A stretch of 64,000 nucleotides of DNA from Minisyncoccia bacterium (GTDB lineage: Bacteria; Patescibacteriota; Minisyncoccia; Phycocordibacterales; UBA9973): positions 94,492-158,491 of the forward strand of contig JBAQNN010000002.1 in the NCBI GenBank assembly GCA_049303835.1. Reading direction: 5' to 3'. This document shows positions 11,560 through 53,003 of the stretch, piece by piece; position 1 is the stretch's first letter, and every line of letters starts with the position of its first letter. The notes beneath the pieces are model-generated. The model did no database searches. It saw only the letters and a program-made list of their open reading frames with translations, and had not been told where the DNA came from. A program made the position numbers and the translations under genes.

Positions 11560-14016
11560 CTACTTTACTTCTCCCAAATTTTTCCCTGAACCAGAGTGCA
11601 CCAGAAGAGGGACATCTGTTTTAAAATGAAGATATGACCGCAAGAGTACCCCCTCCATGGCTTCTTTGATTATTTTATCGGCTGTATCCAATACACCGTC
11701 TTCGGTCTCATATACTAATTCGTCGTGAATTTGTAAAATCAAATGAACCTTATCCAACATACCGGCGTTTTTTAGATCCTCTTCCGCATACCTTATGGCT
11801 AATTTAATAATATCAGCTGCTGTACCCTGTATCGGTGCGTTTGTGGCCGTTCGCTCAGCCATATTTTTTAAAAAAGGAATTCTGGAGTTAATGTTTGGGA
11901 AATAACGCCTACGACCAAATAGAGTTTCCGTATAAGAATGTTTTTCGGCAAAAACTTTTACTCCATTTAAATAGTCCCTCACTCCCCTAAACTGATGAAA
12001 ATAATTATCGTAAAATTTTTGAGCTTCTTCGCGAGTACCTCCCAGATTTTTACGCAAGGCCGAAACCCCCATGCCATAAATAATACCGAAGTTTATAACT
12101 TTTGCCTTCCGACGCATCTCGCTGTCCACTTTCTCTATCGGAACTCCGAAAACAAATGAAGCGACCCCGGCATGAATATCTTTTTTTTCTTTAAAAACTT
12201 GGGTCATCTTTTCGTCCAAAGAAAGCATCGCTGCGACCCGCAATTCAATCTGGCTATAATCAAAAGCAATAAGTTTGTGCCCTTTTTCTGCGATAAAACC
12301 ATCCCTGATTTTTTTCCCCAATTCTGTTTTTATTGGTAAATTTTGTAGATTTGGATCCTGAGATGAAAATCTGCCGGTGGTAGAGCCATTTTGAATAAAC
12401 TTAGCGTGTAGGCGACCATCATCACCCGCCATTTTAGGGATAACATCAATATAAGTGGAAAGTAATTTCTGTAATTCCCGGTAAGCCATTATTTCTTTTA
12501 TTATTTCATTCTCTTCTTCCAATTCTTCCAATACCGAAATCTTGGTAGAAAAACCTCCACTGGCATTTTTCTTTGCCTTGTTTTTACCTGGAGATTTTAT
12601 TCCTAATTTATTAAAAAGTATTTCTCCCAGTTGTTTGGGAGAATTGATATTGAATTCTGTTCCGGCCTGCTGGTATATTTTTTTTGTTAAAATATCCAAT
12701 TCTCTGTGATATTCTTCTGATAACTTTTCAAAATATTTTTTATCTATCAAGACCCCATGGTCCTCCATTTTTTTTACGATGGGTATAATCGGTTTTTCTA
12801 TTTCTTCATAAACTTTTTCAAGATTTTGTTCTTTTAATTTTTTGAAAATATGCTCATAGGCTGTTTCAAAAGATTCGGTATGCGCATAAAGTAAAATATC
12901 TTCCAGATTTGGATTAGAAATATCAGAATTGATAATCCATAAAGCAATACTAGCTTCTTGTAGTTTTTTTGAGTCCACAGAATCCTGGCGAGAGTGCTCG
13001 GAGGAATCTTCGCTACTGGCAGAAAAACCTTGCTCCTCCAGGACAGATTGCGAATGACGGAGAGCATCTTCGCCAGGATTCTGACTTTCAAAAAAGTTTC
13101 TTAAACGTCCAAGCAAACTTCTGAATTCAAATTGGGCGAAAACTTCTTCAATTTTTTTGAAATCAGCATTTTCCCAAAAAGTCTTCTCTGGCAAAGAGAA
13201 ATTTATTGGCGCATCTGTACGGATGGTCGCCAGTGTTTTTGAAAATAAAGCTTCTTCTTCGTTATTTTTTAATAGCTCAATCATCCTAGGACTAATGCCC
13301 ACTTTTTTAAATTGTAATTCGTAATTTGTACTTCGTAATTGCTTATAAATTTCTTCTATGGTGCCAAAATTTACAATCAAGTTTTCAGCCGTCTTTTCAC
13401 CTATACCTTTGATACCAATAATATTGTCAGATGGATCTCCTCGTAATCCCTTGTAGTCTGGTAAAAGCTTTGGTTTAAAACCAAAACGTTTCACTACCGC
13501 ATCCTCATCATATAAAATAGTATCGTTGATTCCCTTCTTTAGGGTATATATTTGAACTTTCTTATCATCCACCAACTGCATGGTGTCCATATCTCCGGAA
13601 GCAATAACAATATTCAGACTTCTGTCTTTTTTGTATTTCTCAACGATAGTTCCCAACACATCATCCGCCTCAAACCCGGGAGCATCGTAAATAGGAATAC
13701 TGAAAGCCTCAAAAATCTTCCGAGAGTTTTGTAATTGCACAATGAGTGCTTCGTCGGCTTTTACCCGACCGGCCTTATACGCATCATAAGCTTCGTGTCT
13801 AAAGGTCTTTTGTGGCAAATCATAGCAAGCGACGATATAGTCTGGCTTTAGCTCGGTAATTATTTTCATCAACATGCTGGAAAGTCCGTATAGTGCCCCG
13901 GTAGGTTCACCTTTTCCAGACAAAAATTCCGGCAAGGCGTGGTAAGCACGATGAATGATGGCATGAGCATCCAACAGGACCAATTTTTTATTTTTCTGTT
14001 CTTCTGTTTTAGGCAT
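11560..14016 (-). CDS. polA: DNA polymerase I
   Basis: 818 aa, 5' nuclease domain (LLDAHAIIHRAYHA), pol motifs DYSQIELRV, RRKAKVINFGIIYG, QIHDELV. Confidence 0.95.
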   Translation of the reverse strand: MPKTEEQKNKKLVLLDAHAIIHRAYHALPEFLSGKGEPTGALYGLSSMLMKIITELKPDYIVACYDLPQKTFRHEAYDAYKAGRVKADEALIVQLQNSRKIFEAFSIPIYDAPGFEADDVLGTIVEKYKKDRSLNIVIASGDMDTMQLVDDKKVQIYTLKKGINDTILYDEDAVVKRFGFKPKLLPDYKGLRGDPSDNIIGIKGIGEKTAENLIVNFGTIEEIYKQLRSTNYELQFKKVGISPRMIELLKNNEEEALFSKTLATIRTDAPINFSLPEKTFWENADFKKIEEVFAQFEFRSLLGRLRNFFESQNPGEDALRHSQSVLEEQGFSASSEDSSEHSRQDSVDSKKLQEASIALWIINSDISNPNLEDILLYAHTESFETAYEHIFKKLKEQNLEKVYEEIEKPIIPIVKKMEDHGVLIDKKYFEKLSEEYHRELDILTKKIYQQAGTEFNINSPKQLGEILFNKLGIKSPGKNKAKKNASGGFSTKISVLEELEEENEIIKEIMAYRELQKLLSTYIDVIPKMAGDDGRLHAKFIQNGSTTGRFSSQDPNLQNLPIKTELGKKIRDGFIAEKGHKLIAFDYSQIELRVAAMLSLDEKMTQVFKEKKDIHAGVASFVFGVPIEKVDSEMRRKAKVINFGIIYGMGVSALRKNLGGTREEAQKFYDNYFHQFRGVRDYLNGVKVFAEKHSYTETLFGRRRYFPNINSRIPFLKNMAERTATNAPIQGTAADIIKLAIRYAEEDLKNAGMLDKVHLILQIHDELVYETEDGVLDTADKIIKEAMEGVLLRSYLHFKTDVPLLVHSGSGKNLGEVK
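12978..13083. repeat. hairpin-forming GC-richer segment inside polA linker
   Basis: 12978-12991 CAGAATCCTGGCGA is the exact reverse complement of 13070-13083. Stem extends by TGCTC/GAGCA; inner GGAGGA (13000-13005) pairs with TCCTCC (13034-13039). Confidence 0.55.
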
Positions 14017-18711: not shown

Positions 18712-18840
18712 ATGCACGACGAGGACGAAGAAATAGAAGAAGGAGGGTTTAAGGTGGGTGATGACGAAGAACTTGATTTACCTCCAGAAGGGTTAGACGA
18801 CTTTGGGTTGGATGAAGAAGACCCTGATAAAGACAGATAA
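18712..18840 (+). CDS. possible 42-aa highly acidic micro-protein
   Basis: Own translation: MHDEDEEIEEGGFKVGDDEELDLPPEGLDDFGLDEEDPDKDR. It is followed immediately by a strong terminator and is below the track size cutoff. Confidence 0.3.
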   Translation: MHDEDEEIEEGGFKVGDDEELDLPPEGLDDFGLDEEDPDKDR

Positions 18841-18845
18841 AAACT

Positions 18846-18871
18846 AAAAAACGCCCACTCGGGCGTTTTTT
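18846..18871. terminator. bidirectional rho-independent terminator
   Basis: A-run, ACGCCC (18851-18856) / GGGCGT (18861-18866), 4-nt loop, T-run. Abuts the tyrS stop. Confidence 0.75.
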
Positions 18872-20045
18872 AGTTTTGTGTAACTTTCACGAATCTTTTT
18901 TTGCCGATTTTAAGCGTTAAGTTTTCTGAAACTTTTAAATTTACATCTGTAATATTAGTATTATTGCCTAAATCATGGATGGCGTTTTCTAAAACAAGTC
19001 TGCGCCATTCCCCTTTTGAAGACAACACTTTGCTCTTTACTAAAACTTCACTCAACAATTCTCCCGCGCCGGCTTTTATCTCTTCCATTTCATCCGGAAT
19101 TTCTTTTTTCTGAAAAGTTTTTACAAAGTTTTCCTCGGCCTCTTTCGCTTTTTTCTCCCCATGATAGATTTTCACAATTTCAAAAGCCAGACGCATTTTT
19201 GCATCCCGTGGGTTTTCATTTTGAGGGATTTCTAAATCAGAAATATTTGTGCAAAGTTTAAAGTATTTAGGAATAAGCTCATCACGCAAAGCCATAATCT
19301 TACCAAACATATCATTTGGTTCATCGGTTATGTTTACGACATTTCCCCAAGAAGTGGACATTTTTCTTCCGTCCGTTCCCTCCAGCATTGAAACCGTCAA
19401 AATATCCTGTTCCGGCATCCCATAGTGTTTTTGAACTGTTCTACCGGCTTTCAAATTAAACAATTGATCAAAACCCCCTATTTCCACATCTGCTTTTACA
19501 ACAACACTATCATATCCTTGCATTAGCGGATACAAAAACTCACGCAGAGATATTTCTTCTTCTTTGTCAATTCTATCTTTGAAATTACGCCTATTGGACA
19601 TTTGTTGAACAGAAAAACTCTCAGCTAGTTCTGAGATTTCTTTAAATCCTAGTTTTCCCAACCATTTACTATTGTATTTAAATTCCGTTTTCTTTAAGTC
19701 TATAATCATGCCTAGTTGTTTGGCATAATTTTTCATATTTATTTTTATTTGTTTAGCTGTGAGCATCGGACGTTTTTCCAATTTATCTGATGGGTCTCCT
19801 ATCGTGGCCGTAAAATCTCCAACTATTAAAACGACCTTATGCCCCAGGTCTTGAAATTGTTTTAGTTTTTGCAATGGCACCGCTCTTCCTAGGTGAATTT
19901 TGGGTCCGGTTGGGTCAATACCTAGTTTTACCCGAAGAACTTTTCCTGAAAGAAGCTGTTTTTTGAGGTGTTCTTTTACAAAGACATCTTCCACTCCTCG
20001 GTTTAAAATTTCATCTATTTTTTTCTCATCCGTTATCACTTTCAT
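18870..20045 (-). CDS. tyrS: tyrosyl-tRNA synthetase
   Basis: 391 aa, GIDPTGPKIHLGRAV (HIGH-type), GDFTATIGDPS, KMSTS, C-terminal S4-like region. Confidence 0.85.
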   Translation of the reverse strand: MKVITDEKKIDEILNRGVEDVFVKEHLKKQLLSGKVLRVKLGIDPTGPKIHLGRAVPLQKLKQFQDLGHKVVLIVGDFTATIGDPSDKLEKRPMLTAKQIKINMKNYAKQLGMIIDLKKTEFKYNSKWLGKLGFKEISELAESFSVQQMSNRRNFKDRIDKEEEISLREFLYPLMQGYDSVVVKADVEIGGFDQLFNLKAGRTVQKHYGMPEQDILTVSMLEGTDGRKMSTSWGNVVNITDEPNDMFGKIMALRDELIPKYFKLCTNISDLEIPQNENPRDAKMRLAFEIVKIYHGEKKAKEAEENFVKTFQKKEIPDEMEEIKAGAGELLSEVLVKSKVLSSKGEWRRLVLENAIHDLGNNTNITDVNLKVSENLTLKIGKKRFVKVTQN

Positions 20046-22875: not shown

Positions 22876-23973
22876 TTATCTATTCATTGGCATAATGAGA
22901 TAGGTAAAAGAAGAATCAGAGACCGGGGATACAACCATAGGACTTCCTGTGCCGGAGAGTTTTATAGAAACACTATCAGTGACAATTGACTGAAAACAGT
23001 CCAAAAAGTATTTATAGTTGAAAGAAAGTTCTATGTTTTCACCGTTTATAACGGCATCTAAATAAGTTTTATTTTCTCCCACATCGTTGTTGGAAGATGA
23101 AAACTCTAAAATCTTTTCTTTTGGAATAATCTTTAAATTAACTTGATTAAACTTGTCTGAAAAGATATTAGACAACTTTAAGGCATTCAATAAATCTTGT
23201 TTGAGAACCACTACCTCCGTAGTTGTGTTTTTGGGAATAATTTGACGATAATCTGGAAAAATACCGTCAATTATTCGTGAAGTTAAGTAAATGTTATCAG
23301 AAGAAAGTGAAATTTGATTTTTATTAAAACAAACCTTTAGGACCCCCTGAAATTCCCCAAAAACCTTCAAAATTTCAGCTATGTTTTTATAAGGAACAAG
23401 AATACCTGAAATTTCCTCAACCCCCTTCGCTTTTACCTTTTTTTCGGCCAACCTAAAAGAATCTGTTGAAACAAAAACCAAATTATCTCCGTTGGTATAT
23501 ATAAAAACACTTGAAATTTCTGGCTTTATATCGGAAACAGAGGAGCTATAATAAACTGATTTAATTCCCTCAATAAGTTTTTTTGATTCTATTTCAAAAC
23601 TTGTTCCCGTCACAGTGGGAATGGTTGGAAAATCTTCGTGAGGCTGACATTTTAATCTTATTTGACTTTTTTTTGTTTTAATTAAAAGATTTTCATCCTT
23701 TTTTTCCAACTGAACATTTTCATTTTGAGAAACGTTGGAAAAAATAGCGTTTAGCACCGAACCTGAGATAGCCAAAGTTCCTTCTTTTTCTATTTTAGCT
23801 GAAATTTCAACTTCAATACCCAAGTTTAAGTTGGTGGATCTCATTTTTAATGATTTACCCGAAGCAATCAATAAAATTGAGCTTAAAACGGGAAGGGTTA
23901 GATTTTTGCCGGTAATTCTCTCTACTTGAGATATTCCATTTTTGAGTTTTTCAACCGAACATTCTATTTTCAT
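22876..23973 (-). CDS. dnaN: DNA polymerase III beta sliding clamp
   Basis: 365 aa, three-domain clamp pattern, MKIECSVEKL..., position next to dnaA. Confidence 0.9.
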   Translation of the reverse strand: MKIECSVEKLKNGISQVERITGKNLTLPVLSSILLIASGKSLKMRSTNLNLGIEVEISAKIEKEGTLAISGSVLNAIFSNVSQNENVQLEKKDENLLIKTKKSQIRLKCQPHEDFPTIPTVTGTSFEIESKKLIEGIKSVYYSSSVSDIKPEISSVFIYTNGDNLVFVSTDSFRLAEKKVKAKGVEEISGILVPYKNIAEILKVFGEFQGVLKVCFNKNQISLSSDNIYLTSRIIDGIFPDYRQIIPKNTTTEVVVLKQDLLNALKLSNIFSDKFNQVNLKIIPKEKILEFSSSNNDVGENKTYLDAVINGENIELSFNYKYFLDCFQSIVTDSVSIKLSGTGSPMVVSPVSDSSFTYLIMPMNR

Positions 23974-24212
23974 ATATTTGTTTATATCTTATATAAATAA
24001 ATTATTAGTAATATTAGTGTTGTTAATAAGTGGATAATTATTTTTATATTTATTAAATATACTTATTTTTAATTTATAAACTGAACTTAAATCTAATAAC
24101 TTTTTGTCTTATGTTTATGAAAATATTTTTTATTTTTAATTTTTCTTTTTATTCGCGTTAATTAACAGATTTTGTCTGGTTTGTTATATTGTTTTTCCCT
24201 ACTTATAAACAG
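23974..24212. other. candidate oriC / DNA unwinding region (very AT-rich dnaA-dnaN spacer)
   Basis: 239-bp spacer, by eye >80% AT with A/T tracts. One near-consensus DnaA box at 24029-24037 (TTATCCACT on the minus strand). Confidence 0.5.
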
Positions 24213-25556
24213 CTATTTAAACATAATTCTTATTTGTTCCAACTCTTGCAGCAACGAAGAATCATTTTTTAAGTCAGTTTTTATTTTTAAACAAGAGTGG
24301 ATGACTGTCGTGTGATCCTTTCCCCCCAATTTTTGTCCAATTAGCGGATAAGATACATTAAAGTCTTCTCGGAGTAGATACATGACTACTTGTCTTGCTC
24401 TGACTATTTCCTTTTTTCTTGTTTTCTCATAAATTGAAGATTCTTCCAATTTATAATATTCACTCACTATCTTTACTACATCCTTTATGGCCATGTTTTT
24501 CTTTGGTCTAAGGTTGTTTTTGAGTAGATTTTTTACCTCTACAAGCGTCAATGGTTTGTTTTTTAGTTTATATTGGCAAACAATAAGGTTAAGACTTCCT
24601 TCCAGCTCCCTGATGTTTCCCTGAACTGCCCCCGCCACGTAATCTATCACCTCCTCAGCCAAATCAACATTTAATTCACGGAGTTTAACCTTTAAAATAG
24701 CCAGACGTGACTCATATTCAGGCTCAGATATGTCAACGATCATACCAGCAGCAAAACGAGACTTTAGTCTATCCGCCAGCTCTGGAATGTAGTTTGGGTG
24801 TTTGTCTGAAGAAAAGATAATCTGTTTGTTGTTTTCATAAAAAGTGTTAAATGTGTGAAAAAGTTCTTCTTGAATTTTTTCCATTTTTCCAATGAATTGG
24901 ATATCGTCTATTATTAACAGGTCGTATTTACGATATTTTTCTTTAAAAGAATTTGCTTTGTTGTTTTGGAGTGAATTTACAAAATCTGTGGCAAATTTTT
25001 CCAAGGTCATATAGTGTACCTTTTTATTTGGATATTTTTCTTTTATTGAGTTTCCCACCGCCTGAATCAAGTGTGTTTTTCCTAGTCCAGTACCTCCATA
25101 AATAAAAAATGGGTTATATTTTGTTCCAGGAGAGTCTATTATTGCCTGGGCTGCAGCATAAGCGAGCTCATTGAAAGTTCCGACGATAAACGAATTGAAT
25201 TGATAGCGTGGATTTAGGTTGTCTTCCAGATTTATGTATAAATCTTTTAGGGGTAGTTCTTTTTCTATGGTTATTTCATTTATTGGCGCTGGTTCTTGTT
25301 TTACATTTTCTGTTTTAACAATAGTATATTCTACGGCACGCATATTTTCATAGGCATCGGCAATGGTTTTGGTTATCAATTTGTGATATTTATTGATAAG
25401 CCAGTCGCGGACGAACTCGTTTGGCACCCCAATATAAACAATACCGGTATCTTCTTTTATGATGGATGTGTTTTTAAACCAGGTACTAAAATTTGCTTTT
25501 GATATACCAGATTCTATTTCCATTAGACAACTTTTCCACAACTCTTTTGTATTCAT
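24213..25556 (-). CDS. dnaA: chromosomal replication initiator DnaA
   Basis: 447 aa, AAA+ Walker A GGTGLGKTH, Walker B LLIIDDIQF, C-terminal DNA-binding HTH (GGKDHTTVIH). Confidence 0.95.
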   Translation of the reverse strand: MNTKELWKSCLMEIESGISKANFSTWFKNTSIIKEDTGIVYIGVPNEFVRDWLINKYHKLITKTIADAYENMRAVEYTIVKTENVKQEPAPINEITIEKELPLKDLYINLEDNLNPRYQFNSFIVGTFNELAYAAAQAIIDSPGTKYNPFFIYGGTGLGKTHLIQAVGNSIKEKYPNKKVHYMTLEKFATDFVNSLQNNKANSFKEKYRKYDLLIIDDIQFIGKMEKIQEELFHTFNTFYENNKQIIFSSDKHPNYIPELADRLKSRFAAGMIVDISEPEYESRLAILKVKLRELNVDLAEEVIDYVAGAVQGNIRELEGSLNLIVCQYKLKNKPLTLVEVKNLLKNNLRPKKNMAIKDVVKIVSEYYKLEESSIYEKTRKKEIVRARQVVMYLLREDFNVSYPLIGQKLGGKDHTTVIHSCLKIKTDLKNDSSLLQELEQIRIMFK

Positions 25557-30980: not shown

Positions 30981-31012
30981 AACTCAGCCTAATTATATCA
31001 TATCTGCTTTAC

Positions 31013-31047
31013 AACTTTATAACTTTCAACTTTTGAACTTTATAACT
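31013..31047. repeat. five degenerate 7-8-nt direct repeats AACTTTNN (AAAGTT in mRNA sense)
   Basis: acAACTTTatAACTTTcAACTTTtgAACTTTatAACTa directly after the virB4 stop. Followed in mRNA sense by TGATATAAT. Confidence 0.6.
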
Positions 31048-32893
31048 ATTGTTTACCCTCAGTTTCCGCTCTCTCCTGCTCCTCCTTGGCTTTTCTGTTT
31101 GAAAGTATTTGGGAAGGGTCGGAAGTGATTATCTGGTCTTCAGTATAAGAAGAAATGACTTTTATGGCTACATGCTTTAGGCCGGCAAAGAATATTCCCT
31201 CCCCGAGGCCTGACTCCAAAAGCAGATATTTTTCTTCATCCGTCAGGTTGAAGGTTTTTTGTAAAATATCTATAGTGGTCGGTGATTGTTTAAGGAGAAG
31301 TTGAATAGAAGAGTTTGTAATGATGGGGACACCATAAGGAGATTTCATAAAGTCGGCGGCGTCTTGGGTGATGGTGGAAAGACCGAGATAATATTTTCTA
31401 CCTCTTTTGGCGATAGAGTATAAGAATGAAGCGGTGTCTTCAGATTTCATCATCCACCAAGCCTCATCTACTACCAAGAGGCGCTTTTTCAAATTTTTTC
31501 GTACGGTATTCCAGATATAATGCATGATGATATACATGGCGACGGGTTTTAACTCGTCTTCCATGTCGCGGACGGAAAATACTACGAATTTTTTATTGAT
31601 ATCCACATTGGACGGTCTGTTTAAGAATGTCGCCCAAGAACCCCTCGTATATTTGGCTAGTCTGGTGACGATTGAATCACTTCCATCCATCCCTCCGAGC
31701 ACCATTTCAAAATCTGACAGAAGAGGAGGTTCAATGTTTGAGAAATCAGATTCAGGAGTGATATCTTTCATCGCATAAGTTTCGGAAATAGCTCGGTCTA
31801 CCATTGAATCTTCTTCAGGGGTGAGTCCGCCTAGCATCAATCTGAAAAGCCCTACCAAGTTTATGATATTTGAACGGAGGACATCTTCGGCTGTTTCGCC
31901 TTCGTGAGGAATAGGTAAATCAAAAGGATTGATGTGGTGATCGGAAGAAAGAGAAATATTGAAATATCTTCCACCGACCGCCTCTGACAAGAACTCGTAT
32001 TCCCTTTCCGGATCTATCACTATGACATCAACATCAAACATTAAAGATCTCAAAATTTCTAGCTTAGTGGCATACGATTTTCCGGAGCCGGACTTGGCAA
32101 AGGTCACGGAGTTGTAATTCTCTAGTGAAAATCTATCAAAGATGACTAGGCTGGAATTGTGCCTGTTGATGCCGTAAAGTATTCCTTTGTTGGAAGTCAG
32201 GTCAAAAGAAATAAATGGGAATACACTACTAAGTGGTTCAGAATTCAACTTCTGATGAATACCAAGTATGTCTGTATTTATGGGTATGACGCTCTTAAAA
32301 CCGTCTTCTTGTTGGAAGAGAGCCGGTTTGATATAGATGAGTTTTGATTCAAGGATTGATTTTATCTCATTTTCTATTTTGAAAAGTTCCAACTCGTTGT
32401 CGGCATAAATGGTGATGTAAATACCCACATCAAACATTTTTTCTTGCGCTTGGATCAGATTATTGCGCAGGCCCTCTAGGTCTTGGTAGGCAGTATCAAG
32501 CATAGGGTCGCGCACCATACCCTTACTCTCTCGTACACTTATCTGACTCTGCACCTCGGCGACTTTTTTCTGAAATTGTCTCAAGACCAGAGAAGTGTCT
32601 ATCGGATGAATAAAAATTGAAATATCAAAAACTTTATCCAGATTGATTATAGGAGAGAACCAATTGTCTGTCAGAAATCTAGGATAGGAAATGATGAAAA
32701 AAGTACGAGCGATTTTATCTCCCAAGCTTATGGATTTAGACGATATTTTCAGAGCTGAAGGAGCGATGACATCTTGGAGCTCCAGGGTGGCGGATTGGTA
32801 GATTTCTTCCGGCATCACTGCCAAGACGGAAGCTCTCACTTCCTTTTCCTCCCCTCCTTTTTGTCCACCTAATAATTTTTTTAAAAAGTCCAT
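31046..32893 (-). CDS. virB4: VirB4/TraE-type T4SS ATPase, C-terminal 3/4 (split gene, part 2)
   Basis: 615 aa, Walker A AKSGSGKSY, Walker B LLVVDEAWWMM, ITQDAADF. The N-terminus matches the DxIAPS...yP region that sits at about aa 215 of single-chain Gram-positive VirB4 homologues. Confidence 0.85.
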   Translation of the reverse strand: MDFLKKLLGGQKGGEEKEVRASVLAVMPEEIYQSATLELQDVIAPSALKISSKSISLGDKIARTFFIISYPRFLTDNWFSPIINLDKVFDISIFIHPIDTSLVLRQFQKKVAEVQSQISVRESKGMVRDPMLDTAYQDLEGLRNNLIQAQEKMFDVGIYITIYADNELELFKIENEIKSILESKLIYIKPALFQQEDGFKSVIPINTDILGIHQKLNSEPLSSVFPFISFDLTSNKGILYGINRHNSSLVIFDRFSLENYNSVTFAKSGSGKSYATKLEILRSLMFDVDVIVIDPEREYEFLSEAVGGRYFNISLSSDHHINPFDLPIPHEGETAEDVLRSNIINLVGLFRLMLGGLTPEEDSMVDRAISETYAMKDITPESDFSNIEPPLLSDFEMVLGGMDGSDSIVTRLAKYTRGSWATFLNRPSNVDINKKFVVFSVRDMEDELKPVAMYIIMHYIWNTVRKNLKKRLLVVDEAWWMMKSEDTASFLYSIAKRGRKYYLGLSTITQDAADFMKSPYGVPIITNSSIQLLLKQSPTTIDILQKTFNLTDEEKYLLLESGLGEGIFFAGLKHVAIKVISSYTEDQIITSDPSQILSNRKAKEEQERAETEGKQ

Positions 32894-32900
32894 AATTGTA

Positions 32901-32975
32901 TTTAGGCTTTAGCTTTTAGGCTCTAGGCTCTAGCTTTTGAGTTTGCTAATGCCTAAGGCCTAGTTGCCTAGCGCC
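32901..32975. repeat. heptad hairpin element copy A, (NNTAGGC)n - loop - (GCCTANN)n
   Basis: TTTAGGC TTTAGC TTTTAGGC TCTAGGC TCTAGC / ttttgagttt / GCTAAT GCCTAAG GCCTAGT TGCCTAGC GCC. It fills the gap between the two virB4 parts. Confidence 0.8.
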
Positions 32976-33614
32976 CTACTCTATTTTAATCTTACCCTCC
33001 AATTCTCCGGGGTTGAAAACTTTATAAAATACTTCCACTACTTCTTCGGTATTCAGCTGGGCCGAATTTATTCCACAACGAGACAATCCTTGCTGGATGA
33101 CAGCTACCCTCTCTTCTAGTTGAGATCTCTTCTCTTCAAAATCTATCTGTTTTGCGGCTCGCACTTCTTCTGAATTCTTTTTGGAAAATAGCTTTCCCAA
33201 TATCCCGGAATCTGATTTTAAAGTTGTACGTGAATATGGTATTACAATAAAGAAGTTTTTTGTCATGATACTGACAGATTCAGTAAAGCTTCTTATAAAC
33301 TCTATATATTCCCTAGTTTGCAACTTGATCAACGGCTCATTTTGCACTTTTACTCTGTTTTCTAAAAGGAGTAAATAAGGTCTGATGTCCAGCCTTCTGG
33401 ATTGGACTGATATCTGTACCGGAAAATCCAAGGTGTTTAAAAAATTTTGAAATTGAAGAATGGTCGCATGTTGTTCATCGGAAGATTTCAAGGATAGGTT
33501 GACCGAGTTTGCGAGTACGATGGCTCGGAGCTCACCTTCTTTTAGCACGATGATGCCATCGCGTATCTCTTTGATTGGTATAAATTCTTGTGTTGCTTTT
33601 GCTTTTAATGCCAT
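32976..33614 (-). CDS. virB4: VirB4 N-terminal domain (split gene, part 1)
   Basis: 212 aa, ATQEFIPIKEIRDGIIVL...NLSLKSSDEQHATILQFQNFLNTLDFPVQI resembles the N-terminus of Tn916 Orf16/PrgJ-type VirB4 (recalled from memory). Confidence 0.65.
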   Translation of the reverse strand: MALKAKATQEFIPIKEIRDGIIVLKEGELRAIVLANSVNLSLKSSDEQHATILQFQNFLNTLDFPVQISVQSRRLDIRPYLLLLENRVKVQNEPLIKLQTREYIEFIRSFTESVSIMTKNFFIVIPYSRTTLKSDSGILGKLFSKKNSEEVRAAKQIDFEEKRSQLEERVAVIQQGLSRCGINSAQLNTEEVVEVFYKVFNPGELEGKIKIE

Positions 33615-33623
33615 AAATTTTTT

Positions 33624-33700
33624 CTAGGGCTTTAGGCTCTAGGCGTTAGGCTTTAGCTTTTGTTTCGCTAGAGCCTAGTGCCTAAGGCCTAGCTGCCTGC
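33624..33700. repeat. heptad hairpin element copy B
   Basis: CTAGGGC TTTAGGC TCTAGGC GTTAGGC TTTAGC / ttttgtttc / GCTAGA GCCTAGT GCCTAAG GCCTAGC TGCCTGC. The last 12 nt supply the end of the prgI-like ORF. Confidence 0.8.
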
Positions 33701-34129
33701 ATTTTTCTTTTTACTCAAATCAAGCACGTCCAAGCTCCAGGCCAAATCTCGCAACCTACTTCCATCCAATTTTGAACTGACATTTGGCAGTACTTCATTT
33801 TTATTTTCATCCATGTTTGTAGTTTGCGATTTATTATTTGCTACCCTACCGGTCTTCTTCTTCCAAATATAAAGTTTGTTTTGAGAAAAATATTTAAACC
33901 CTGCTTCAATCATGTTTATAAAAGGCTTATTGTTTGGTTTATAGAAAGTAAGAGCTAAAGAAAACCCGGCGATAATCAAAATAGGGATGGCGCTAAAGAC
34001 GAGCCCTAATAATTTATAAAGCACAAAACACAAACCTGCTCCGCCGGCCAAATAAGCAAACTCCCTAAAAGTAAAAGGGCCGAATATTTTATCTTCTATT
34101 TCTAAAAATTGTGGAACCTTGAATTGCAT
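33689..34129 (-). CDS. PrgI-family (VirB3-like) two-TM T4SS protein
   Basis: MQFKVPQFLEIEDKIFGPFTFREFAYL then two TM helices. I prefer the ATG at 34129 over the track GTG at 34141. Confidence 0.65.
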   Translation of the reverse strand: MQFKVPQFLEIEDKIFGPFTFREFAYLAGGAGLCFVLYKLLGLVFSAIPILIIAGFSLALTFYKPNNKPFINMIEAGFKYFSQNKLYIWKKKTGRVANNKSQTTNMDENKNEVLPNVSSKLDGSRLRDLAWSLDVLDLSKKKNAGS

Positions 34130-34140
34130 AAATACAGGCA

Positions 34141-34542
34141 CTAGGCTTTAGGCGCTAGGCTCTAGCTGAGAAATTAGTTTATTCAACATTTTCATAATTT
34201 CTTCTAATAAAGAACCCACTTTATTATAATCTAATTTTGCAGTTTTGGGTAATTTTTTAGATATTATTAGCTGAGTTTCTAGCTCCGCACCAGAAGCAAA
34301 GGCAATAAGTAAGAATCTTTTGAATTCTGGAATTCCTCCTCGCATTTTCCCTTCTGCAATATTAGAAGGTATGGATACTGCCGCCCTACGAATTTGTGAG
34401 GTTAAACCATAAATTTCTTCCTTCGAAAATTTGTCTGTGAGTTCATAAACTGCTATTACAAGCTCTATCGATTTTTGCCACACGACTAAATCTCTATATG
34501 TTTTCATGTGTTTTTTACTAGCGCCTAATGCCTAGAGCCTAG
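34141..34542 (-). mobile_element. heptad hairpin element copy C carrying a four-helix-bundle (IVS-type) gene in place of the loop
   Basis: Left arm 34141-34166: CTAGGC TTTAGGC GCTAGGC TCTAGC. Right arm 34518-34542: CTAGC GCCTAAT GCCTAGA GCCTAG. By hand pairing the arms form a ~26-bp helix around the ORF. Confidence 0.55.
34148..34507 (-). CDS. four-helix-bundle protein (23S rRNA intervening-sequence protein family)
   Basis: 119 aa, MKTYRDLVVWQKSIELVIAVYELT...SIPSNIAEG...AELETQLIIS, the signature pattern of this family. The last codons (LEPSA) are encoded by the repeat arm. Confidence 0.85.
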   Translation of the reverse strand: MKTYRDLVVWQKSIELVIAVYELTDKFSKEEIYGLTSQIRRAAVSIPSNIAEGKMRGGIPEFKRFLLIAFASGAELETQLIISKKLPKTAKLDYNKVGSLLEEIMKMLNKLISQLEPSA

Positions 34543-34548
34543 AAAATA

Positions 34549-35100
34549 TTACTCCGGTATCTCCCTATACGGATCAATTTTAGGAACATCTGCTCTATTT
34601 CCACTGGTCTTTTCTTCTTTAGTAATATTTTCTATTGAGTGGTCCGTCTCTACAACAGGATTTTTTACAAGGCCGGATAGTTTTTGGGCCAAAATGGGAT
34701 GTGGAGAATCTATCTCCAGTTTTTCCGGCACAATCTCAATCCCAGCGGATTTTAGTATCTCTGTGTCGTTCTCCTCTTCTTTTATCTTTGATGAATCTAT
34801 TAATTTTTCTCGGATTTCCTTCAATATTTTTTCATTAACGTCATTTACTATGGTGTGGATTTTTTCCTCCGGCAGTTTTAGACTGTTTCTGACCGACTCT
34901 TCAAATTTATCCGGATGAGTAAACCCAAACATCACCATGTGTGTCTCAAGTGACAATTGACCCATCTGTTCTACGTTTAGATTTTCTTTTTGACCTATTT
35001 CTATAATGTTATCGTCCACATTGGCCGCCATGATTGACCATTTTAGGTCTTCCGGCAAGCTCTCAAATTTTTTTTGTATTTCTTCTAATGATATTTCCAT
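34549..35100 (-). CDS. acidic hypothetical protein (T4SS-like operon)
   Basis: 183 aa, no TM helix, no motif recognised. Confidence 0.55.
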   Translation of the reverse strand: MEISLEEIQKKFESLPEDLKWSIMAANVDDNIIEIGQKENLNVEQMGQLSLETHMVMFGFTHPDKFEESVRNSLKLPEEKIHTIVNDVNEKILKEIREKLIDSSKIKEEENDTEILKSAGIEIVPEKLEIDSPHPILAQKLSGLVKNPVVETDHSIENITKEEKTSGNRADVPKIDPYREIPE

Positions 35101-52433: not shown

Positions 52434-52862
52434 TCATAAAATGATGTCGCTGACCACCTTTACTCTGGCTTTTTTATTTTTTAAATCCAGATATACAACC
52501 AGGAGATCCACTTGCCACTCTTTACCTTCGGAGATTTTTTCGGACAAAAGATATGTTTGAATTGTCCGTGACATTCGTTTTAGTTTCCAGGGATGCATAT
52601 TATCTTCTGGTCTGTAGTTGTTGTCTGTTGTTACATGTGAAACATTGTCTAGCGTTACACGGGAAACACTCTTTACTTCTATAAAATACAGCCTGTTATT
52701 TTTTTCAGCTATTATGTCTATCTCCCCCCATTTTTTAGTATAATTTCTTTCCAATATTGAAAAACCGTGTTTCACGAGAAACTTTTCAGCTATGTTTTCC
52801 CCAATTTCTCCTATCTTTTGGGTTTCTGATGTAAATTTTTTAGGCATTTTAATAAGTTTCAT
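52434..52862 (-). CDS. YraN-family (UPF0102) endonuclease with an internal 2 x 24-nt tandem repeat
   Basis: GEIGENIAEKFLVKHGFSILERNY...GEIDIIA...YFIEVKS. Start ambiguous (GTG 52871, ATG 52862 or ATG 52847). Confidence 0.75.
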   Translation of the reverse strand: MKLIKMPKKFTSETQKIGEIGENIAEKFLVKHGFSILERNYTKKWGEIDIIAEKNNRLYFIEVKSVSRVTLDNVSHVTTDNNYRPEDNMHPWKLKRMSRTIQTYLLSEKISEGKEWQVDLLVVYLDLKNKKARVKVVSDIIL

Positions 52863-53003
52863 GTGTAACACGTTTCACGTGAAACACTTTACTAAATTTT
52901 AGTGTCTTTTATCATAAAACCCTTACTTTTCAACGTATTTTTGATAAAAATGATCCCAAAAGACAGTTTTGAAATGTGTCCTTTATAAACATTACTAACA
53001 TAG

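Follow-up and report, generated by a model that had tools for sequence, protein, structure and literature searches.

Heptad-bracketed four-helix-bundle cassette and two ORF-less hairpins inserted at gene junctions of a type IV secretion-like operon of a Minisyncoccia bacterium

The intervening sequence (IVS) of the Coxiella 23S rRNA gene carries an open reading frame (ORF) of the S23p family, a terminal stem of 28 bp and, upstream of the ORF, tandem heptamers whose copy number varies among strains; RNase III cuts within the stem, in vitro and in vivo (PMC4990558). Here, we have analysed a stretch of 64,000 nt from a Minisyncoccia bacterium (GCA_049303835.1, contig JBAQNN010000002.1, positions 94,492-158,491 of the forward strand; this whole stretch is called the window, and its coordinates are 1-based), in which a gene of the same family, coding for a four-helix-bundle (4HB) protein, is enclosed by inverted arrays of 7-nt units inside a protein-coding operon that resembles the type IV secretion system (T4SS) operons of Patescibacteria, and is accompanied by two hairpins that contain no ORF. 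We consider it probable that the region represents a 23S rRNA-IVS-type insertional cassette (cassette C) and two ORF-less derivatives (the solo hairpins A and B), located in the stop-to-start junctions of the operon and processed by RNase III.

The element resembles the ORF-bearing 23S IVSs of Coxiella and Leptospira (PMC4990558; Ralph and McClelland 1993, as cited there) in that a sense PF05635 ORF occupies the loop of a terminal-repeat stem of about 25-30 bp, the arm that precedes the ATG contains tandem heptamers, the element lacks a promoter of its own, and the distribution is sporadic, which suggests horizontal transfer. This stem-plus-ORF layout had been pointed out in an earlier reading of the window from its sequence alone (the original prediction), and the tandem heptamers of the Coxiella IVS add to its support. 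The locus also differs from the 23S IVSs: the host transcript is a protein-coding operon instead of helix 45 of 23S rRNA, and lies outside the 23S or 16S rRNA location (helix 9, 25 or 45) by which IVSs are defined; the 4HB gene, which decays in Coxiella, is intact and conserved at this locus; neighbouring junctions carry copies without an ORF; and the cleavage by RNase III is one that we infer.

The heptad unit that is shared by the three elements consists of a 5-nt core, TAGGC, and two free positions (Table 1). With at most one mismatch, TAGGCNNTAGGC has 11 matches in the window, all of them within 32917-34541, while 100 dinucleotide-preserving shuffles contain 1.8 matches on average and at most 5, and none of them reaches 11. 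Period-7 arrays are placed at the same sites by Tandem Repeats Finder, and a repeat search has recovered three-copy direct families and inverted pairs at A, B and C, all of which confirms the three heptad hairpin sites within 1.7 kb that the original prediction had described. No second 4HB gene or further hairpin copy was found elsewhere in the window.

Table 1. Coordinates of the elements and of the genes of the host operon
Feature	Position	Strand	Remarks
Host operon segment with the three insertions	31046-35100	minus	Pfam and NCBIfam
183-aa gene (geneX)	35100-34549	minus	upstream of cassette C
Cassette C, 5' arm	34518-34543	minus	mRNA sense TCTAGGCTCTAGGCATTAGGCGCTAG
4HB cargo gene, 119 aa	34148-34507	minus	23S rRNA-IVS / S23p / TIGR02436 family
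Cassette C, 3' arm	34135-34166	minus	mRNA sense GCTAGAGCCTAGCGCCTAAAGCCTAGTGCCTG
PrgI-like gene	34129-33689	minus	
Solo hairpin B, without ORF	33624-33703	minus	plus strand: left arm 33624-33657, loop 33658-33666 (TTTTGTTTC), right arm 33667-33703
VirB4 N-domain / TrsD-like gene (VirB4-N), 212 aa	33614-32976	minus	
Solo hairpin A, without ORF	32901-32979	minus	plus strand: left arm 32901-32934, loop 32935-32944 (TTTTGAGTTT), right arm 32945-32979
VirB4-type ATPase gene (VirB4-C), 615 aa	32893-31046	minus	

Every gene of the region is carried by the minus strand; in the mRNA sense, the order is the 183-aa gene, the 5' arm of C, the 4HB gene, the 3' arm of C, the PrgI-like gene, hairpin B, VirB4-N, hairpin A, the 615-aa VirB4-type ATPase, a 328-aa protein and a pilin/VanY protein. 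The 5' arm of C starts 6 nt past the TAA that closes the 183-aa gene, and its other end is 10 nt ahead of the 4HB ATG; the 3' arm contains the six final codons (LEPSA) of the 4HB gene together with its TAA, and the PrgI-like ATG (34129) comes within about 6 nt; the claim that the arms enclose a complete 119-codon 4HB ORF whose last codons lie in the arm is thereby borne out by the sequence and by the PF05635 and TIGR02436 profiles. In the solo hairpins, the first TAG of the stem is itself the stop codon of the preceding gene: the PrgI-like gene stops at 33691-33689 in B, with the VirB4-N ATG 9 nt past the hairpin, and VirB4-N stops at 32978-32976 in A, with the VirB4-C ATG (32893) 7 nt past it. 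The next ATG comes about 6-12 nt past each 3' arm, or 2-12 nt when counted from the base of the stem, and, because 7 is not a multiple of 3, three consecutive TAGGCNN units supply TAG in all three frames.

Hairpin B folds at -44.2 kcal/mol on the plus strand (23 Watson-Crick and 6 G-U pairs, z -5.0) and at -34.8 kcal/mol in the mRNA sense (z -4.5); the six plus-sense G-U pairs of the original prediction are exact, while the helix of about 33 bp that it had given comes to 29 pairs in the fold. Hairpin A, whose sequence is nearest to that of B, folds at -31.2 and -31.4 kcal/mol on the two strands. The arms of C are 84-91% complementary (inverted-repeat pairs 34135-34166 / 34518-34543) and pair across the ORF in the minimum free energy folds of both strands. 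When the ends of C are fused, A and B align to them, and the alignment takes in the inner ends that lie outside the heptads; its score is 50, where shuffles reach 4.5 on average and 17 at most. The terminator and promoter scan called no intrinsic terminator or promoter at the hairpins, which are followed, in the mRNA sense, by the A-rich sequences GAAAAAAUUU (after B) and AAAUACAAUU (after A), without a U-tract; Rfam has no match at the hairpins, either at gathering thresholds over the whole window or in E-value mode over 32800-34700. Two perfect GC-cored hairpins between A-runs and T-runs, at 858-892 and 18840-18877, resemble bidirectional intrinsic terminators and show what real terminators look like in this genome; A and B are unlike them.

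The product of the cargo gene is matched by PF05635 and TIGR02436 (E 6e-36 and 2e-34, respectively), with profile scores of 123 and 118 bits (cutoffs 33.8 and 24). Its comparison with 2GSC (XCC0516) of the Protein Data Bank gives an E of 4e-22, an identity of 42% in the structure alignment and a Foldseek TM of 0.91, and the AlphaFold2 model consists of four helices (pLDDT 96), with a TM of about 0.75 to Avd of the diversity-generating retroelements (DGRs). The protein, a putative pentameric Avd-like scaffold, does not match the equivalog model of the DGR Avd (NF033474; 16.4 bits against a cutoff of 80), and no reverse-transcriptase domain was found among the operon proteins scanned, in a scan that was not systematic over the whole window. 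The near homologs (75-100% identity, all of about 119 aa) are from Patescibacteria; viral contigs contain no near relatives, but do contain distant ones.

Related operons, denoted below by L numbers, were found through 4HB and VirB4-N homologs, and the same gene order is present in L121-L148 and L231-L238. As judged from the sequences, their comparison shows the three elements to be insertions relative to the orthologous operons (Table 2).

Table 2. Occupancy of the three junctions in orthologous operons
Locus	VirB4-N identity	geneX-PrgI	PrgI-VirB4-N	VirB4-N-VirB4-C
Window	100%	4HB, TAGGC arms	TAGGC solo	TAGGC solo
L231/L232	99/97%	4HB, TAGCT arms	TAGCT solo	26-nt spacer
L233/L234	92%	84-aa GIY-YIG ORF, inverted repeat ATCCCGTTAGAG	ORF-less hairpin, same termini	4 nt
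L238, L235, L237, L236	91-84%	empty (4-26 nt)	empty (4-26 nt)	empty (4-26 nt)
L147, L141	86, 83%	4HB, TAGGC arms	solo B, loop as in window	empty
L131, L121, L064	75-73%	4HB, TAGGC arms	empty	empty

Hairpin A is found in the window only, with a spacer of 4-28 nt in its place in all the other orthologs examined, L231 included; the comparison of the filled with the empty site is compatible with an insertion at the TA of a TAA stop, although most of the former 26-nt spacer is also gone. Copies of hairpin B with the loop of the window occur in L141 and L147/L148, and are missing in L121, L131, L064 and L235-L238. L231 shares with the window 79% identity in geneX, 63% in 4HB, 90% in PrgI, 99% in VirB4-N and 98.7% in VirB4-C, and its 4HB protein is nearest (75%) to that of the TAGCT-type cassette of L154, a very distant operon; because the 4HB gene and its TAGCT arms differ amid a 99% identical VirB4-N and have their nearest relative in L154, we conclude that the ORF and the arms have been exchanged as a unit. 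Complete 4HB cassettes, with heptads of yet other types, are found in operons that are more distant, either upstream of PrgI (L154, L158, L170), at the position of B (L175) or at the position of A (L195). The arm type of a solo is that of the neighbouring cassette, in three different types. In two of the loci, the 3' arm of the cassette has an internal 'cagctagagccta' duplication, 11 nt apart (L147:750-800 and L148:1205-1255), as if by slippage or a nested event.

Synteny had suggested that the 4HB gene is a fixed core component of the T4SS operon of the candidate phyla radiation, a notion that the empty and swapped sites reject. We have likewise rejected hairpin A as the cause of the split of VirB4, because the split is present in all the orthologs: every Patescibacteria operon examined has the two-gene VirB4, i.e. 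a 212-aa N-domain and an ATPase of about 615 aa, with a hairpin between them or without one, an arrangement that resembles TrsD/TrsE; the N-domain gene matches the TrsD/TraD family along its full length.

A different kind of cargo is found in L233 and L234, where an 84-aa GIY-YIG ORF (L233:1660-1960) at the geneX-PrgI junction is bracketed by ATCCCGTTAGAG/CTCTAACGGGAT, and an ORF-less hairpin of 110 nt with the same termini (L233:2375-2505; -40 kcal/mol, z -6) is located at the PrgI-VirB4-N junction. With its ends, the L233 element contributes the final A to the TAA stop codon and the AT to the ATG that follows, and a degenerate TAGGC-like arm remains upstream. Free-standing homing endonuclease genes are likewise small promoterless genes of variable presence between conserved genes, and the raised divergence of the immediate flanking genes, which suggests co-conversion, is a further point of likeness; unlike them, the 4HB protein has no nuclease domain, and the 84-aa GIY-YIG ORF is the catalytic domain only.

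The original prediction had offered two readings of the locus, one of which was a mobile hairpin element with the 4HB gene as its cargo, and this reading fits the empty orthologous junctions, the cassettes at other junctions, the 4HB/GIY-YIG swaps and the absence of hairpin A from L231. It had also likened the solos to MITEs (miniature inverted-repeat transposable elements) beside an autonomous element: A and B do share both termini with C (with the alignment score given above) and show presence/absence polymorphism at orthologous sites, as MITEs do, but since there is no transposase, the term 'autonomous element' holds as an analogy only. A clear target-site duplication was not found either, and the insertions are confined to stop-to-start junctions, unlike those of MITEs. 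A comparable relation exists in the REP/REPIN-RAYT system (PMC3116915), in which extragenic palindromes are located between co-oriented genes of operons, the coding copy lies within the same repeats in inverted orientation, and the repeat type is matched to the gene; it differs in that the cargo here is a PF05635 4HB protein and not a Y1 (HUH) transposase, the arms are made of heptads, and there are just three copies in 64 kb.

Heptad-periodic inverted arms are a general property of the 4HB gene family, with a unit that differs by lineage, as we show by comparing diverse members. At 50% identity, the family falls into about 20,000 clusters; starting from 61 diverse members, an alignment has led to 80 metagenomic loci, with 46-63% identity to the window protein, and in nearly all of these 80 loci period-7 arrays are present on both sides of the ORF. 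The units are lineage-specific (TAGCTTn, TAGGGAY, CAGTGRT, TAGTGGC, CAGCTTT and others), TAGGC being seen in one locus only. A strict lag-7 array detector was discarded, as it missed arrays with two free positions; flanks were called as inverted repeats at a score of at least 28, with ORFs from the same loci as controls. By this call, 65% of 72 metagenomic 4HB ORFs have inverted-repeat flanks, against 2% of 254 control ORFs, and 39 IMG/VR contigs have replicated the result with 65% against 4% of controls, which amounts to an enrichment of 16-30 fold. The lag-7 self-identity of the best window is 0.60 at 4HB flanks, compared with 0.37-0.43 in controls and 0.46 at other lags. The best partner of a 5' arm is its own 3' arm in 41 of 70 loci, and its own arm ranks among the top three in 58 of the 70.

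The upstream neighbour has the orientation of the cassette in 63 of 70 cases and the downstream neighbour in 51 of 59, at median gaps of 62 and 54 nt, which leaves little spacer in addition to the arms (median about 55-60 nt). The neighbours are of many kinds: 92 neighbour proteins have matched 156 different Pfam families, none more than three times, with sdhA-sdhB junctions, sugar-nucleotide genes and ABC transporters among the examples. In L169, L186 and L190, a 4HB cassette is located downstream of the sdhA flavoprotein gene, with the sdhB iron-sulfur subunit gene next in L169 and L190. The window contains no rRNA (Rfam gives five tRNAs only), and no rRNA adjoins the cassette in any of the 20 related loci scanned, i.e. 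those that have no near co-oriented protein-coding neighbour on at least one side; an association with 23S rRNA, for which the original prediction had proposed a search, has thus been found neither in the window nor beside these cassettes. A stable-RNA context other than rRNA occurs at L200:1231-1850, where a heptad-armed 4HB cassette lies between two tRNA genes. In some IMG/VR cassettes (L258, L260-L263, L270, L272, L277), the 5' heptad array is 40-60 nt upstream of the ATG, with a Bacteroidota-type promoter-like TAnnTTTG between the two, and therefore not all members of the family are promoterless. About 10 perfect TAGGGAY/RTCCCTA units are present on each side of the cassette at L179:2411-2926; this unit is one base from the GGGGA(C/T)T heptamer that is described as over-represented in Nostoc (PMC4692102).

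When species-representative genomes are scanned for three TAGGC heptads, at least 120 loci in many phyla are found. A search of 120 TAGGC-array loci with a hidden Markov model, built from the near homologs and iterated, has found a 4HB gene in four; among the matches listed, it adjoins the array in three (L031, L064, L112), about 20 loci are short-loop hairpins, half of them between co-directional ORFs like A and B, and the remaining loci are mostly one-directional arrays. From the small number of 4HB genes, it follows that, elsewhere, TAGGC arrays are for the most part solos or simple tandem arrays. The association of arrays with 4HB genes that the original prediction had proposed to test is seen from the side of the gene, as most 4HB genes have heptad arms, but not from the side of the motif, as most of the listed TAGGC arrays have no 4HB gene. 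Overall, the finding is real and more general than had been supposed.

Paired heptamers have been described before, with several readings: convergent GGGAATC pairs in Xanthomonas, with the heptamers of Xanthomonas and Nostoc read as G-quadruplex-forming (PMC4692102), 'class 3' paired sites of Geobacter metallireducens read as sites of a global regulator (PMC2700814) and TAACTGA arrays in Beggiatoaceae (PMC4679880), with regulator or IHF sites and translational signals as further readings among these papers. The published pairs are like the elements of the 4HB family: they are tandem arrays of 7-nt units, often in convergent inverted pairs, located between co-oriented genes and near the upstream stop, with the G-rich strand 5' on both strands and stops in all frames. 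Neither 4HB nor S23p is mentioned in the searched portions of the three texts, and neither operon-embedded 4HB cassettes nor cognate solos are described in the full-text literature searched, the coverage of which is incomplete, so that an earlier notice is possible. The G-quadruplex reading is not general, because units such as TAGCTTn have no G runs.

The mechanism that we propose begins with the cassette as a promoterless gene for the 119-aa 4HB protein within inverted heptad arrays, which, like the two solos, would be transcribed from the operon promoter. The all-frame TAG codons of the 5' arm would end any upstream ORF that enters the element, as is observed for the stops of the PrgI-like gene and VirB4-N; within the polycistronic RNA, the two arms would form a paired stem of about 25-30 bp, which RNase III would cut, by analogy with the homologous IVS stems of Coxiella, Leptospira and Salmonella. 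Through this cut, the 4HB RNA would be freed and the transcript of the operon divided along its gene boundaries, and the downstream start codon would be exposed by the cleavage or by a ribosome that terminates in the arm. We retain this putative RNase III processing of the A, B and C stems as the likeliest consequence at the RNA level, because the homologous Coxiella IVS is cut within its stem. The second reading of the original prediction, 'engineered' RNase III processing sites, is unlikely in view of the several orthologous operons that are entirely free of hairpins.

A number of results weigh against this proposal. The original prediction had expected the asymmetry between G-U pairs and A-C mismatches to tell which strand folds; family-wide, this indicator is uninformative, as the mismatches in 47 stems comprise 56 G-U against 57 A-C in the sense strand, i.e. 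there is no preference for the sense, and within the TAGGC clade the antisense folds are as stable as the sense folds or more so (-44 against -35 kcal/mol in B), so that the mRNA strand is not indicated. In the same clade, 145 of 165 core positions are complementary, and the two free positions are Watson-Crick paired at 19 of 67, about the level of chance; a core that is kept beside free positions that are unpaired accords more with its sequence-specific recognition than with selection acting on a continuous RNA helix. The pairing and strand data together are compatible with such recognition or with selection for all-frame stops. No RNase III signature motif was found in the 64-kb window, nor was a transposase, an integrase or a clear target-site duplication, the 4HB gene being the only ORF of the cassette, and the ORFs of the related loci are crude six-frame calls. 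Finally, the identity of 4HB within the TAGGC clade rises and falls roughly with that of the T4SS genes beside it; in this clade, the cassette is mostly vertically inherited and under purifying selection comparable to that on the VirB4 domains, and is therefore not simply junk.

The pairing pattern leads to a rival explanation that we regard as unlikely, yet to be taken seriously, in which the heptad arrays are binding sites, as DNA or as single strands, for the 4HB pentamer or for a recombinase, in the manner of transposon subterminal repeats, the RNA stem is incidental, and the cassette and the solos form a self-maintaining pair like RAYT and REPIN. The conserved 5-nt core with its two free, unpaired spacer positions and the missing strand asymmetry speak for it, as do the G-rich arm, which in 43 of 47 loci is the 5' one on either strand, like that of terminal inverted repeats, the co-variation of the heptad type with the 4HB lineage and the match between solo and neighbouring cassette in three types; moreover, Avd, to which the 4HB protein is structurally related, serves in the DGR particle to hold RNA and reverse transcriptase, and the similar paired heptamers of Geobacter were proposed to bind a regulator (PMC2700814). 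However, no catalytic or sequence-specific nucleic-acid-binding activity is known for 4HB proteins, no recombinase is nearby, the match of solo and cassette could reflect the co-transfer of the segment from geneX to B (PrgI 90% against VirB4-N 99%), and the heptamer stem of Coxiella is cut at the RNA level while its S23p is probably untranslated (PMC4990558). In another rival explanation, the hairpins could be host-selected regulators of the T4SS operon, acting on processing or stability, or through a translational coupling that sets the PrgI:VirB4-N:VirB4-C ratios, and not selfish insertions. The stop codon at the 5' base of the stem with the next ATG 7-12 nt past the 3' base, the conservation of hairpin B and its loop in L141 and L147, the purifying selection on 4HB and the absence of obvious Shine-Dalgarno sequences from the genes here would agree with this explanation, which we nevertheless think improbable, as four orthologous operons (VirB4-N 84-91%) have no element in junctions of 4-26 nt, the same kind of cassette is found in unrelated housekeeping operons, and the element is replaced at the same site by another type or by a GIY-YIG cassette. 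Least credible of all, and hardly worth holding, is the view that the sites are ordinary spacers, intrinsic terminators or slippage microsatellites unrelated to 4HB: heptanucleotide repeats are the commonest long simple repeats in bacteria, according to work cited in PMC4679880, and most TAGGC arrays of other genomes, among the matches listed, have no 4HB gene within 4 kb, but the stems are followed by no U-tract in the mRNA sense, the terminator scan is negative and the real terminators of the window look different; the arrays are inverted pairs, confined to 1.7 kb and missing in orthologs, and the flanks of 4HB genes are enriched over those of control ORFs as described above.

With regard to the rest of the window, the operon is chromosomal, since dnaA, dnaN, ksgA and uvrD are also encoded there. 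The genes dnaA (24213-25556) and dnaN (22876-23973) are both on the minus strand, with AT-rich tandem repeats between them (24034-24153), and this region, at a distance of about 5 kb from the T4SS-like operon, probably represents the origin of replication. Other repeats are present as well: at 31005-31047, about five units of 7-8 nt (AAAGTTnn, mRNA sense) form an array in one direction, which starts from the TAG with which VirB4-C stops and occupies part of the junction to the 328-aa gene, and for which no inverted partner was found; next to the tRNA cluster, at 52856-52887, the palindromic 16-mer GTTTCACGTGAAACAC is present twice in tandem; and the short tandem array TAATTTGTAATTCG at 13308-13340 has a period of 14 (sub-period 7) and a sequence unrelated to the TAGGC heptads.

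As for the family, sequence comparison shows the defining feature of the element to be the heptad-periodic inverted bracket, whose unit co-varies with the protein. Because no rRNA was detected beside the related cassettes that were checked, the rRNA location of 4HB elements looks like a rare special case; their usual habitat is the junction from stop to start in ordinary operons. We tentatively suggest, as a possibility that we rate low, that 4HB genes are the protein-coding members of one widespread, so far unrecognised class of operon-hitchhiking elements, in which each lineage would recognise its own 7-nt unit and maintain or propagate its arms and ORF-less solos without a known transposase, and to which the 23S IVSs and the heptamer repeats of Xanthomonas, Nostoc and Geobacter would also belong. 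For genome annotation, the arms flag insertions that add spurious C-terminal tails to the upstream gene and shift the apparent start of the next gene, as we have seen in gene calls. IVS/S23p is among the largest protein families without a function, and the brackets that surround its genes may offer a common explanation for the heptamer repeat pairs of Xanthomonas, Nostoc and Geobacter.

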